From Ostreococcus lucimarinus (lineage: Eukaryota): 64,000 nt of DNA. A program made the position numbers and the translations under genes. Positions 3,257 to 36,377 of the stretch are shown in pieces. Every line of letters starts with the position of its first letter. The stretch's first letter is position 1. A model generated the notes under the pieces. The model was not told the origin of the DNA. It worked only from the letters and a program-made list of their open reading frames with translations, and searched no databases. Where the stretch lies: NCBI GenBank assembly GCA_000092065.1, contig CP000584.1; one strand, written 5' to 3'.

Positions 3257-4885
3257 ATGCCGTCGCGCCGCACGATGCCGCGCGCGGCGCCGTCGTCGTC
3301 GTCGAGCGCGTCGTCGTCGAGCGACGATGGCGACGACGACGGCGTCGACGACACGCTGGCCGCGATGTCCGACGACGCGATCAACGCGCGCGTCGCGCCG
3401 TCGTTTTACGCGCTGACGCGAAGCATCGACCGCGAGGACCGACGCGCGTTTCATCGCGTGCACTCGATCGCGCGCGACGCCGCGTTCGTGGAGGCGCAGG
3501 GCGAGCGGTTTTTGCGCGATTCGACGCGCGCGGCGTTCGCGAACGCGCGCGCGGGAGCGTGGTACGCGGGGGGGGGGAGGTTCGCGTACGAGACGTGCTA
3601 CTTTAAGAGCACCGACGGACACAATAATAACTGGACGATGTCGGCGACGAGGTTGAATCGACGCGTGGCGATGGCGTGCGCGGCGGGGAGGGGAGGGATG
3701 ATCGTGGACGCGACGCGGAGCGCGGTGAAACGGTTTCCGGATGCGCTGTCGAAGACGGTGCCGATTTGGTGCGACGCGTTGAACAGGGCGTGCGCGAGGG
3801 CGAAGCGGGACGCGGGAGCGGCGGACGCGGACGATCGCGCGTGGTTCGAGGGACCGCATTTGCCGGAGTGGGTGGCGGAACACGAGCGGAACAGCATACG
3901 CGCGCTCGTGCCGGAGTTTGAGGCGAGTTTGAAGTCTACGGGATGGGACGTCGGCGAGCTCGCGGCGATTTTGGAAAAGCCGTTTCGATGCGTGTGGGTG
4001 AGTCGGGGCGAAGACGGCGCCGAACTCTCGCTCGAGTCGCTCGCCGAGGCGGACTTTACTCCGCTTATACTCGTCACGGCGAGCGCGCCGCTGCATTGGC
4101 GCGGTGAGCGGCGGGTCGGGGTGAACGGGCACAGTTTCGCGTACGTTCCGGGAGCCGCGGACGACGAGGAGAGTTGGTCGCGTGGACTCACGGCTGACAT
4201 GTTTCACGAACACCGCGATGCTTTGCTCCACGCTTCTGAGCGCGACATTGACAACATCATCGCGCGCATCGTCGACGGTCGAATCGGGAAGCCGCGCGAG
4301 TTGGATCCTCGGTCTCGACTCGCGCCGCGAGGGTGTGCGCCGATGGACAGCCGCGCAGCGGAGGAGGCGAATCGTTCGAACGGTGCGATTTGCGCCGGCG
4401 GCATGCGAGAGCTTTCGCCAGAATGCGGCATCGGTCGATGCTCGATCGCGTCGTTCGCCGTGTACGATCGCGCTGACATGGAAAAACTCGCGGACGCATT
4501 TCTTCACGTCGGGGAAACCGTCGTGGATCCGAGCAAGGCGTGCTCGACTGCGTTTCTGCACGTTCCAGCGAGAAAAGCGAAAGTGAGCCGAACAGATCTC
4601 ATGAAAGCACTGCCTCGATGCATCGACTTCGCTCGTCGGACGTTCGAAACGCCAGGCGCACGTCTGTGCGTCACGTGCGACGACGGCGTCGACCACTCTG
4701 TCGCCGTCGCCGTGGCGCTTTGCATCGCCATGGGACCGTCGCCGTGTTCAAACGCGGACTTAGACAAAGACGACGTGCGCAAACAACTAGCGGCGGTATC
4801 GAAAACCCATCCCGACGCCAGACCGACGCGCGCGTCGCTCAAACAAGTGTACAATTTCTTTCTTCATAGCGAGGTAGCCGATTAG
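3257..4885 (+). CDS. RIT1: tRNA A64-2'-O-ribosylphosphate transferase (Rit1 family)
   Basis: N-domain motifs SFYALTRSI and ANARAGAWY match Rit1 SIYNRLRSI and ANERCGSWY. The C-terminal DUSP-like segment CVTCDDGVDHSVAVAVALCI matches too. First ATG at 3257, with alternatives at 3275 and 3365. Confidence 0.7.
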   Translation: MPSRRTMPRAAPSSSSSASSSSDDGDDDGVDDTLAAMSDDAINARVAPSFYALTRSIDREDRRAFHRVHSIARDAAFVEAQGERFLRDSTRAAFANARAGAWYAGGGRFAYETCYFKSTDGHNNNWTMSATRLNRRVAMACAAGRGGMIVDATRSAVKRFPDALSKTVPIWCDALNRACARAKRDAGAADADDRAWFEGPHLPEWVAEHERNSIRALVPEFEASLKSTGWDVGELAAILEKPFRCVWVSRGEDGAELSLESLAEADFTPLILVTASAPLHWRGERRVGVNGHSFAYVPGAADDEESWSRGLTADMFHEHRDALLHASERDIDNIIARIVDGRIGKPRELDPRSRLAPRGCAPMDSRAAEEANRSNGAICAGGMRELSPECGIGRCSIASFAVYDRADMEKLADAFLHVGETVVDPSKACSTAFLHVPARKAKVSRTDLMKALPRCIDFARRTFETPGARLCVTCDDGVDHSVAVAVALCIAMGPSPCSNADLDKDDVRKQLAAVSKTHPDARPTRASLKQVYNFFLHSEVAD

Positions 4886-18908: not shown

Positions 18909-19559
18909 CTATGTCCTATTTTGGCGCTGCCCAGTGACTTCCGCGGGCAAAGGTCTATTGAAGCCGCCGACGCGATTCATGTATTGCCTGGCTTGCCGCT
19001 TCGTCTTCTTTTGCACCGCCGACGCGTTGGCGAACTCATCCTCCACGTGCTTGCCTTGCGTCGTGCCGAATCCTCCGAATCCCATCATGCGCATCATCGC
19101 GGACTCATCGTCTTCGTCCTCACCCGCCGGCGGCGGCGGCGGCGGCGGCACGTCGACCGCTTTCCCGCCGCCCGCCGCGGGCGGCGGCGGCGGCACGTCT
19201 CTCCGTCGCTTACGGTCGTCGCGCGCCGGCGATCGCGATCGCGACCGCGACCTCGACCTCGACCGCGAATCACGTCGTCGCTTCCTTCGATCGTCATCGC
19301 GCGAATCCTCGCGCGCGCCGCGTCCGCGACCGTACCCCCCGTACCGCCGCGGCGGCGACCTCGACCTCGACCTCGACCTCGACCTCGACCTCGACCTCGA
19401 CCTCGACCTCGCTCGCCGCGCGCCGTACCCTCCGTACCGCCGTCCCGGCGACCTCGACCTTGACCTCGCCCGCGCGCCCCCCCTCCATCGCCCGTCGCGT
19501 CCATCGTCGCGTCCGTACCCTCGCCCGTCTCGTCCGTCGTCTCGTCCGAACCGCCCCAT
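18909..19559 (-). CDS. SNRNP27: U4/U6.U5 tri-snRNP 27 kDa protein (SNRNP27): N-terminal RS domain and conserved C-terminal domain
   Basis: The C-terminus MMRMMGFGGFGTTQGKHV…KKTKRQARQYMNRVGGFNRPL matches the SNRNP27 (DUF1777) signature. The RS repeats are encoded by the (GACCTC)n microsatellite. Confidence 0.8.
   Translation of the reverse strand: MGRFGRDDGRDGRGYGRDDGRDGRWRGGARARSRSRSPGRRYGGYGARRARSRSRSRSRSRSRSRSRSPPRRYGGYGRGRGAREDSRDDDRRKRRRDSRSRSRSRSRSRSPARDDRKRRRDVPPPPPAAGGGKAVDVPPPPPPPAGEDEDDESAMMRMMGFGGFGTTQGKHVEDEFANASAVQKKTKRQARQYMNRVGGFNRPLPAEVTGQRQNRT
19357..19410. repeat. (GACCTC)9 coding microsatellite, encodes (RS)n on the minus strand
   Basis: Perfect hexamer repeats inside the SNRNP27 RS domain. 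A shorter copy lies at 19243-19262. Confidence 0.9.
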
Positions 19560-19819
19560 CGTCTACGCGTCCCGCGTCCCCGCCCCCTTATCCAGCACCG
19601 CGCGCAGTTTCGCCTCCTCCGCGCGCGCGCTCTCGAAGTGCGTCACCCACGACCTCGGACACGCCCGCTCGTACGCCTCGCGCGCGCGTCGACACGTCGC
19701 CGTCGCCGTCGCCGTCGCCGCCGAATCCGAATCCGAATCCGTCGTCGCCGCGGCGTCCGCGCACCGGTGATACGCGTCGCGCGCGTCGCGGCACGCGACC
19801 CGCGCCGCGCGTATGGATC

Positions 19820-19821
<2 letters not shown>

Positions 19822-19857
<36 letters not shown>
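19822..19857. repeat. (GTC)12 trinucleotide microsatellite, intergenic
   Basis: Perfect repeat located between the SNRNP27 start and the AP2 gene. Confidence 0.9.
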
Positions 19858-19859
<2 letters not shown>

Positions 19860-19958
19860 GCGCCGCGCCGCGCCGTCGTCTGTCGAATCGTCGAAAATCG
19901 CGTCGAATCGCGTCGACGCGCGCGTCGACGCCCGACTGTTTGCGCATACGGCGAGGAT

Positions 19959-20081
19959 CGAGAGGGACACATTCCCGAGTCGCCATCGGTCGATGGCGCC
20001 GAGAGGGACACATTCGTGAGTCGCCATCGGTCGATGGCGCCGAGAGGGACGCATTCCCGAGTCGCCATCGGTCGATCGGTC
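19959..20081. promoter_or_regulatory. Three tandem copies of a 41-bp unit (CGAGAGGGACACATTCCCGAGTCGCCATCGGTCGATGGCGC), each with an 8-9 bp-stem palindrome GCGCCATCG-GT-CGATGGCGC; candidate cis-regulatory module about 250-370 bp upstream of the AP2/ERF ATG
   Basis: Copies at 19959-19999, 20000-20040 and 20041 to about 20081. Copy 2 differs at 3 nt and copy 3 degenerates into GTCGATCGG repeats. Confidence 0.5.
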
Positions 20082-20332
20082 GATCGGCGTCCCAGATTCT
20101 CGGGACGCTTTTTCGTCGGCACGTTTCGCTCCGACGCCGCGCGTCGACGGCGCGACTCCGCCGCGTGCGCGAGCGACGCGGCGCGACGCGACGCGAGCGC
20201 ATCGGGACGACCGCGAGGGACGACCGCGCGGCGCGCGCGACGCTCTCGGACGCGACGGCGAGCGCGCGCGCGTCGACGCGAACGCGCGAAAAAGCGCAAA
20301 AGTCCGAAGCGATAGGCGACGCGACGCGCGCG

Positions 20333-20422
20333 ATGGCGACGCATCACGGCGCGCACTCGCGGAAATCGACGCCGGATCCCGACGAGGACGACGCGCTGGA
20401 CGATGATCTCGATGATCTCGAG
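20333..20422 (+). CDS. AP2/ERF transcription factor, exon 1 ([30 protein letters not shown]); donor GTGCGAGCG at 20423
   Basis: ATG at 20333, phase-0 donor. The intron has ACTGAC at 20648-20653 and acceptor CGCAG at 20671-20675. Alternative model: an uninterrupted ORF from ATG 20403. Confidence 0.5.
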
Positions 20423-20675
20423 GTGCGAGCGCGAACGCGGGAGAGACGAGGACGAGAGGGAGGAGACGGGGGGGAATTGTGGGAACGCGGGACGACGCGG
20501 GACGACGCGCGGGACGAGGACGCGAGGCGAACGAGACGCGAGCGAACGGCAGAGGACGACGAGGCGAGGACGCGCGATCGGGACGGTAGTGATCGCGAGG
20601 TCGAGCGCGCGAGAGAGAGAGAGGGCGTCGAACGCGGGCGTGGAGGTGACTGACGAGGCGCGACGACGCACGCAG

Positions 20676-21857
20676 GGCGGCAAGGGCGACAAGCAGTCGA
20701 AAAAGGCGACGACGTCGCAGTATCGCGGGGTGAGACAGCGCCCGTGGGGGAGCTGGGCGGCGGAGATACGCGATCCAAATCGAGGCGCGAGATTGTGGCT
20801 CGGCACGTTCGATACCGCCGAAGAGGCGGCGAGAGCGTACGACGCGGCGGCGAGACACATTCGCGGGCCAAACGCGAAGACGAATTTTCAGCTCGCGCCG
20901 GGGGAGGAACCGCCGCCGTTCGTTTTGCCCGAGCCCCCGTCGGGGGGGCGCGGTGGTGGCGGTGGCGGTGGTGGACGCGGCCGGGGCGGACACGACGCGG
21001 GTTTGCCGTCAATCGGAGGTTTCGGCGCCGGAGCGTCGCGCCAGCCCAACGCGCTCAAGAAGCAAAAACCCGTGGGGAAGGACGCGAAGGGGGGTCCGAG
21101 CACTATTTACGGCTTCGGTCCGAGTTCGAGCGACAAGAACTCCACTCCTAAGCGTGGTTCGATAGGTTTCGGCAGTGGCACCGACTTATCCGCCCTCGTC
21201 AACGCCAATCTCGCCTTGGCCAACCAAAACCTCGCCTCGGCCGGGTCGGCGAGAAAGGATCACGAAAACAGTTTCATGAAACTCTTCGCCAACGGTAGCG
21301 TGGGTGGGACGCCGTCGAGCACGGGTGGATCGCCGCTCATTATGCCCGAGTCAGTGGAACTGCGCGACGGCATGAGCGGCATGAGCGGTGAGATTCCGGT
21401 GATTCACGGCAAACGCGACCGCGGTCCGAGCAGCGCGTTTTTTGGCACGTCGTTCGGCGTCGCGGGTTCGTTCGGTTCGATGTTTCCCCCGGACATGGGG
21501 CTGTCCTCAACCCCGGACGGTGTCGACAATTTCTACGGCGAGTTCTCCATGTCCCCCAACGATCGGTCGGCGCACGGTGCAGATCATTTCCCCGTCGGAA
21601 GCTTGGGGACGATGGTCGACTTGAACGACGCGCTGCCGGCGGTGGGATCGCTCGATCTCGGAAGTCCGGTAGACTTAGACTCGATGATGAATTCGTTGCC
21701 GAGAAATAGTGGCGGGAAGGTTCAAACCGTCGCATCTATTCTCGGCAAACCCAAGAAAAAAGAGCACGATTCACCGCTTGGAAGAGCGTCGACGCGCAAC
21801 ACGCGCGAATCCTCGCGCTCGAAGAGCGCGTTGGACGCCATGTCAGCGCTCAAATGA
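20676..21857 (+). CDS. AP2/ERF transcription factor, exon 2 with the AP2 domain ([49 protein letters not shown])
   Basis: Canonical single AP2/ERF DNA-binding domain. Gly- and Ser-rich tail. Confidence 0.8.
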
Positions 21858-36019: not shown

Positions 36020-36377
36020 GTCGGCGTCGAGGACCGGCGCGACGACGTCGAGGATCGTCGCGCGGCGCGCCTCGGTCGCCGCGCGTCGACGAGTCGCGAC
36101 CGTCGGCGCGCGCCGTCGACGCGTTCGGCCGCGGCGTTGGTCCGTGTTAAAGTGTCCCCGTCGTGAGACTATGGTCCGTGTTAAAGTGTCCCCGTCGTGA
36201 GACGACCTCGCGACGGTCGCGGTCGCGGACGCGATTCGTCGTCGCCGCGACGCGACGCGCGCCGACGCGACGCCGCGCGACGCGAGCGACGCGCGCGATC
36301 GCGCGGTCGACGCGTCGGACGCGGACGCGCGAACGACGCGCGACGCGGAAGCGGGACGAACGACGGCGGAGGATTCG

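Follow-up and report, generated by a model that had tools for sequence, protein, structure and literature searches.

Does a tandem array of short palindromic units lying upstream of a transcription factor gene constitute a regulatory module, a part of a neighbouring transcript, or a repeat whose palindromes have been multiplied along with it? The question is raised by a locus in a 64-kb stretch of DNA (hereafter the window), in which a first, sequence-only reading had described three 41-bp palindromic units and a (GTC)12 tract in the promoter region of an AP2/ERF gene, and had seen in them a binding module for dimeric transcription factors. With a GC content of ~64%, the window is one in which CpG is very strongly over-represented (observed/expected 1.73). 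Its genes are those of a eukaryotic nucleus, with products such as TELO2, an ORC1-type BAH-PHD-AAA protein, TCP11 and a DEAD-box helicase. Identities to Micromonas commoda and M. pusilla, the closest of the named relatives, amount to 48–49% for ORC1 and 43% for AP2, and to 72–85% in the case of several sister species: the source is a marine prasinophyte-type green alga. The results presented below lead us to consider the array as probably a young, single-locus and hypervariable minisatellite (variable-number tandem repeat, VNTR), lodged in a spacer of ~390 bp between a COA6-like gene on the minus strand and the AP2/ERF gene on the plus strand.

The three tandem copies were borne out by Tandem Repeats Finder (TRF), which returns a repeat of period 41 at 19959–20076 (2.9 copies, 93% match) with a score of 215, the highest of all tandem repeats in the window; a score threshold of 100 was applied for this ranking and the runner-up has a score of 132. 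A repeat search places the units at 19959–19999, 20000–20040 and 20041–20081, with identities of 100, 95 and 90% and the consensus CGAGAGGGACACATTCCCGAGTCGCCATCGGTCGATGGCGC. The units are arranged head to tail and their length falls within the 10–100 bp of minisatellites, and none of 100 dinucleotide shuffles reaches the observed counts for either half of the unit. TRF reports 388 rows over the 64 kb, with CG-rich low-complexity repeats throughout; as a result of this prevalence short CG-rich palindromes are commonplace, perfect 9-bp arms being found at 16 loci. Elsewhere in the window, a perfect 34-bp tandem duplication is noted at 36138–36203 (1.9 copies, 100% identity, TRF score 132), whose unit is unusual in containing AT (TGGTCCGTGTTAAAGTGTCCCCGTCGTGAGACTA).

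A palindrome with 9-bp arms had been attributed to every unit. The palindrome was confirmed, but its perfect arms span 8 bp, the ninth position being a mismatch (T vs C), and it is present in units 1 and 2 only: unit 3 reads TCGCCATCG-GT-CGATCGGTC and degenerates into a (ATCGGTCG)2.6 micro-repeat. The array thus ends in a degenerate unit, a feature shared by the terminal unit of all alleles. In unit 1 the palindrome carries one ATG per strand, and the corresponding DNA hairpin is predicted at −7.3 kcal/mol (z = −2.1), whereas the hairpins of the common palindrome variants are no better than those of shuffled sequences.

The genes on the two sides of the array define its setting. The downstream gene had been correctly recognised as AP2/ERF, as it contains a Pfam AP2 domain and its exon 1 and ATG are conserved in sister species, and the distance from the array to this ATG (252–374 bp) agrees with the ~250–370 bp put forward before. 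AP2 variants of 560–599 residues were considered as spliced transcripts that would expose the 5′ end of the gene, and this was rejected, as they are genomic read-through alleles. The divergent intergenic region of ~770 bp, on the other hand, has to be reduced to a spacer of ~390 bp (~19947/19958 to 20332), as the minus strand is occupied, from 19563 to the (GTC)12 tract inclusive, by a COX6B/COA6-family open reading frame. This frame scores 46.8 bits against Pfam PF02297 (cut-off 26), its best solved relatives in the PDB are COA6 (E = 4e-5) followed by COX6B1 (0.02), and it has an identity of 47–71% to its sister-species orthologs. The dismissal of all open reading frames across the block as repeat-driven artefacts consequently fails for this one, and the locus illustrates how large an intergenic region may seem when a small gene is overlooked. 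The spacer that remains may be described as a putative bidirectional promoter or leader region.

This revision also changes the nature of the trinucleotide tract, which lies at 19822–19857 (by TRF, (CGT)12.7 at 19821–19858), 101 bp 5′ of the array, in agreement with the distance of about 100 bp given before. The tract had been proposed as a variable element of the promoter. Its length is indeed polymorphic, as within the species (ACG)n varies from 10 to 13, but always by whole codons and not within promoter DNA. An in-frame Thr run is found at the equivalent position in the orthologs of three other species, with Thr columns that are invariant among the four, and the trinucleotide tracts of sister species comprise 9 to ~19 repeats. 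Clearly, (GTC)12 is a coding microsatellite, read in frame as poly-Thr within the COA6-like gene, and is separate from the array.

Table 1. Positions of the array, of its internal and flanking elements and of the neighbouring genes in the window.
Feature	Position	Strand	Basis
SNRNP27 open reading frame; ATG (19559) lies 3 nt past the COA6-like stop	18909–19559	−	Pfam PF08648, 90.6 bits
COA6/COX6B-family open reading frame, conserved part, CX9C ... CX10C-P-x-S-W-V; stop TAG at 19565–19563	19563–19820	−	Pfam PF02297
(ACG)12 poly-Thr (Thr12) coding tract, equal to (GTC)12	19821–19856	−	Translation
Invariant ATG immediately below the array, in the poly-Asp frame and shifted by +1 from the COA6-like frame	19945–19947	−	Alleles compared
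41-bp minisatellite (VNTR), 3 units in the window allele	19959–20081		TRF and in-register units
Palindrome of unit 1, CGCCATCG-GT-CGATGGCG, 8-bp perfect arms	19981–19998		Motif search
Palindrome of unit 2, CGCCATCG-GT-CGATGGCG	20022–20039		Motif search
(ATCGGTCG)2.6 micro-repeat, in place of the right palindrome arm of the terminal unit	20067–20087		TRF
Flanking inverted repeat GCGTCCC-N8-GGGACGC, followed by TTTTT	20087–20113	+	Sequence reading
AP2/ERF exon 1 (ends ...LE); 5′ splice site GTGCGAG at 20423	20333–20422	+	Peptide and splice site conserved in L023 and L024
Main AP2/ERF open reading frame, AP2 domain	20403–21857	+	Pfam PF00847, 59.3 bits

The tandem structure and the internal inverted repeats, together with a flanking hairpin followed by a run of T, could in principle denote a member of a dispersed repeat family (a MITE, a satellite or an introner-like element) or a known structured RNA gene. 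A search for further copies of the 41-mer, which had been suggested as the way to separate a dispersed repeat from a local element, decides for the latter. Within the 64-kb window no other copy of the unit was found with up to 3 mismatches, and the shorter palindrome cores are not enriched elsewhere in it. In 241 million metagenome records the 19-nt palindrome retrieved 23 stretches. Five of these correspond to the present locus, as they show the palindrome within its unit and beside an identical left flank, and they carry the tetranucleotide signature of the window (r ≥ 0.93) and a CpG excess of 1.72–1.81; the remaining 17 are isolated 19-mer matches in contigs of other organisms, with r ≤ 0.81 and a CpG observed/expected ratio not above 1.33. 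A second array locus was found in none of five independent metagenomes that sample the alga, which implies that any extra canonical copies must be well below one per genome. Furthermore, viral contigs scanned for the palindrome gave no match, and neither a terminal inverted repeat nor a target-site duplication is seen at the array flanks, GCGCATACGGCGAGGATC and GCGTCCCAGATTC.... In respect to an RNA gene, no Rfam match in the whole window reached the gathering score, the best E-value of a permissive scan (19500–20500) was ~0.9, and a tRNA search found none. The left arm of the flanking hairpin (GCGTCCC, equivalent to window 20087–20093) is moreover deleted in the alleles L021, L022, L027, L037 and L049, and since one haplogroup lacks it the hairpin is not essential. 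A dispersed or RNA-gene origin is therefore effectively refuted.

A comparison with related species narrows the distribution further. The sister species represented by L023 and L024, with 82% AP2 identity, retain the divergent pair of COA6-like and AP2 genes, and synteny is conserved at L020, L023, L024 and L025; a fuzzy search for the unit halves and for both flanks in these four loci found neither. The sister-species spacers hold instead unrelated simple repeats, namely (CGGA)10, (GTCGGTCC)6, (TGAA)11 and (CGAT)5. In the window, in the sampled metagenomes and in the sister species compared, the array is thus confined to one species and one locus. At positions 3786–3832 of L023, upstream of the AP2/ERF ortholog, the (GTCGGTCC)5.9 repeat has in the reverse complement of each unit the hexamer ACCGAC. 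DREB-type AP2 proteins bind this DRE/CRT core, although the match could be due to chance in a CGAC-rich genome. The DRE/CCGAC, GCC-box and E2F motifs were also compared with the unit and gave no convincing match.

We have then analysed the array within the species, making use of 30-odd loci of the alga from public metagenomes (Tara Oceans and coastal); the AP2 frame is matched exactly on 204 public contigs and by near-identical variants on many more. Copy number was counted in 27 complete arrays without N gaps from independent metagenomes, and the polymorphism that had been suggested for verification is evident: 1, 2, 3, 4 and 5 units occur in 1, 2, 18, 1 and 5 alleles, respectively, with a mode of 3, and 14 distinct haplotypes are distinguished. 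Most of these counts derive from short-read metagenome assemblies, in which repeats may be collapsed, but the variation appears to be real in view of the long contigs (up to 925 kb) and of the distinct unit orders, as both the order of the units and the unit variants differ between alleles. In the 5-unit alleles (e.g. L008) the unit types alternate, which points to multi-unit duplications. The flanks are near-identical throughout, and the nucleotide diversity of the first unit (π = 0.041) compares with 0.001 over 100 nt of left flank and 0.005 over 243 nt of right flank, so that the unit is 10–40 times more diverse than its surroundings.

Assemblies are affected by this variability. Contigs end inside the array in 5 cases and inside the (GTC)n tract in 3, and N gaps fall within the array in 4 further scaffolds; the array accounts for the recurrent contig breaks at this locus. 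At the end of the L007 contig (positions 1–110), a long low-complexity run of poly-C/G replaces the true sequence upstream of the array and is an assembly artefact. A haplogroup comprising L022, L027, L037 and L049 is also apparent, in which absence of the left hairpin arm goes along with CGATCG-type units that have no palindrome ATGs.

The same data bear on the proposal that the palindromes bind a dimeric transcription factor and that the array tunes AP2, the COA6-like gene or both through its copy number. The position of the array in a divergent promoter or leader region within a few hundred base pairs of the AP2 ATG, the 8-bp arms of the palindrome, the fact that its canonical form is the commonest among 61 internal units (35 units) and that three units make up the modal allele are all consistent with such a module, and promoter tandem repeats do modulate expression in other eukaryotes (PMC3899988, PMC4857002). 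Binding sites under purifying selection would however be expected to be kept intact or to change in a compensatory manner, and this is not what is observed. The remaining internal units have GGCTCC (13), CGCGATCGG (9), changes in both arms (3) or in the right arm only (1), so that the palindrome is damaged in 26 of the 61 (~43%); arms altered on the left only, on the right only and on both sides are all found, which together with the intact form covers the four combinations and denotes no covariation. Also against a binding module are the hypervariability of the unit relative to its flanks, its absence from the orthologous promoters of sister species with the same gene pair, and the 1-unit allele L012, which has no intact palindrome. 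Nor does the element recur: apart from the single locus in the metagenomes sampling the alga, the 14-mer core searched with up to 2 mismatches yields 2 weak matches outside the array in the window where ~1 is expected. Taken together, the comparison of promoters and alleles leaves the dimeric binding module that had been proposed unsupported, and we regard it as rather unlikely.

The VNTR interpretation, on the contrary, would accommodate these features within a simple process. Units would be gained, lost and homogenised via replication slippage and unequal exchange or gene conversion, a turnover probably assisted by the hairpin-prone palindrome with its 8-bp arms and by the embedded ATCGGTCG micro-repeat. 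The palindrome copies would have multiplied with the duplication of the unit and not via selection for several binding sites, and as copies of this kind they do not count as independent evidence of binding sites. Any effect on expression would then be generic: a change in unit number would shift promoter spacing in steps of 41 bp (~3.9 helical turns) and the array, if transcribed, would contribute upstream ATGs in either orientation. The tandem repeats of other promoters (PMC3899988, PMC4857002) offer an analogy that makes such an influence on the shared promoter plausible. It should be mentioned that weak selection could explain the 3-unit mode (18 of 27 alleles) and the 48 of 61 internal units in which no more than one of the 8 arm pairs is lost equally well as a recent origin.

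A further aspect concerns the translation start of the COA6-like frame, which is open across the array. In the window allele there is no in-frame ATG between the array and the conserved domain, while in-frame ATGs are present within units 2 and 3, the closest being the minus-strand ATG of the unit 2 palindrome (CCGATGGCG). This is a general trend: an array ATG is the nearest in-frame one in 12 of the 15 alleles scored, that of unit 2 (CGACCGATGGCGA) in 11 and that of unit 3 in one (L048). The array could accordingly be viewed as the 5′ end of the COA6-like mRNA, with or without SNRNP27, in which the unit 2 ATG is the start codon and the others are upstream ATGs; the former has a weak context, with C at −3, that would be compatible with leaky scanning towards SNRNP27 (PMC11291117). 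Several observations run counter to this reading. No in-frame array ATG exists in L012, with its single unit, or in L037, with CGATCG-type units, and in L022 an ATT-to-ATG SNP creates an in-frame start below the array, just before the Thr run. In L020 a stop codon and no in-frame ATG are found upstream of the COA6-like frame, and among the orthologs compared the N-terminal extension has no in-frame conservation. In addition, up to 7 ATGs, spread over three frames, would precede the COA6-like frame in a transcript initiated above an array of 3 units. We thus consider a leader or coding role of the array distinctly unlikely, and the array-borne ATG as the start of the COA6-like protein is probably fortuitous, even if the finding that in most alleles the in-frame ATG is provided only by unit 2 hints that the array is perhaps not purely neutral.

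Other routes to a start codon were considered and set aside. Only in L024 does the last upstream ATG lie in frame; in L020, in L023 and in the window species, where it is the invariant ATG at 19947, it is displaced by +1. A short intron that would link the ATG at 19947 to the poly-Thr frame was inspected by eye: the sole AG acceptor ahead of the tract gives 57, 50 or 38 nt and the frame is never restored. L021, in which this ATG is in frame, was discounted, as on its contig the AP2 gene falls into three ORFs, suggestive of an error-prone assembly of long reads. The possibility that copy number toggles the frame of the start, given that a period of 41 equals 2 modulo 3, was likewise rejected, because the in-frame ATG sits in unit 2 as counted from the proximal flank and the gain or loss of distal units keeps the frame. 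A start at a non-AUG codon, such as one of the ACG run or a GTG, would be a further candidate.

The COA6-like stop codon is followed by the SNRNP27 ATG after 3 nt in the window, 12 nt in L020, 21 nt in L023 and 18 nt in L024, so that colinear frames with a short spacer between them are found in four species, as is characteristic of bicistronic loci in green algae. In all four there is no ATG in any frame for 340–550 nt upstream of the SNRNP27 ATG; in the window the ATG at 19947 heads an ATG-free stretch of 388 nt. This latter evidence was downgraded because comparable runs are common in the GC-rich window, where 40 of 1338 gaps (about the top 3%) are of at least 385 nt. The COA6-like gene is probably co-transcribed with SNRNP27, and the two have the appearance of a conserved bicistronic locus, of the type that green algae translate by leaky scanning, which we offer as a lead. 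The pair is not found by name in the datasets of PMC7896298 and PMC11291117; if RNA data confirm it, it would be of more interest than the array to the field of algal polycistronic expression. Within the Arg/Ser/Asp-rich N-terminal part of the SNRNP27 frame, perfect hexamer repeats are observed, (CGACCT)9.3 at 19356–19411 and (GCGACC)6.7 at 19229–19268, and as the ORF called there ranges from 56 to 64 residues across alleles, this coding repeat is also length-polymorphic.

Combining these elements, one may envisage the array as a fast-evolving tuner of the shared promoter or leader, in which unit number would set the spacing between the genes while the palindrome ATGs would give the sole AUG to the COA6-like cistron of a COA6-SNRNP27 mRNA. 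Under this scheme the 1-unit, CGATCG-type and SNP-ATG alleles would differ in the share of ribosomes given to a mitochondrial assembly factor and to a spliceosomal protein; we find it very unlikely. As a VNTR, the array has a more immediate use: with 14 haplotypes in 27 alleles, it lends itself, as a highly polymorphic marker, to population genetics at the strain level in an abundant marine picoalga.

The locus can be compared with four known systems. Green-algal bicistronic loci are reported to be translated by leaky scanning and their hallmarks have been described (PMC7896298, PMC11291117). As in these, a short ORF1 (COA6-like) and an ORF2 (SNRNP27) lie here on one strand, separated by 3–21 nt, and no ATG precedes that of ORF2 over the said 340–550 nt in the four species. 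Here, however, ATG-free runs of such a length rank only within about the top 3% in the GC-rich window, and most alleles of the window species have an ORF1 with no in-frame AUG outside the array. The (ACG)n tract resembles other coding trinucleotide repeats, being in frame with a Pfam-supported domain, varying by whole codons and having its Thr run kept in four species, but it differs in occupying the outermost N-terminal part of a small twin-Cys mitochondrial protein that lacks an obvious AUG. Tandem palindromic sites of dimeric transcription factors likewise consist of an inverted repeat with a short spacer that recurs at a fixed period upstream of a gene; unlike these, the array is not conserved in orthologous promoters, its arms are often broken, it does not recur at other promoters, and its period is simply the length of the duplicated unit.

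The closest correspondence is with the promoter-associated VNTRs described in yeast and human promoters (PMC3899988, PMC4857002). As in those, head-to-tail units of tens of bp are found in a promoter or leader setting, and the array is polymorphic in copy number, far more variable than its flanks, lineage-specific and prone to break assemblies. It is distinguished by a unit that has an internal palindrome and ATGs on both strands, and by its setting in a very compact, CpG-rich prasinophyte genome, where ~390 bp are shared by divergent genes. The array thus belongs to a known class, that of promoter-region VNTRs, of which it is an ordinary though unusually clean example.
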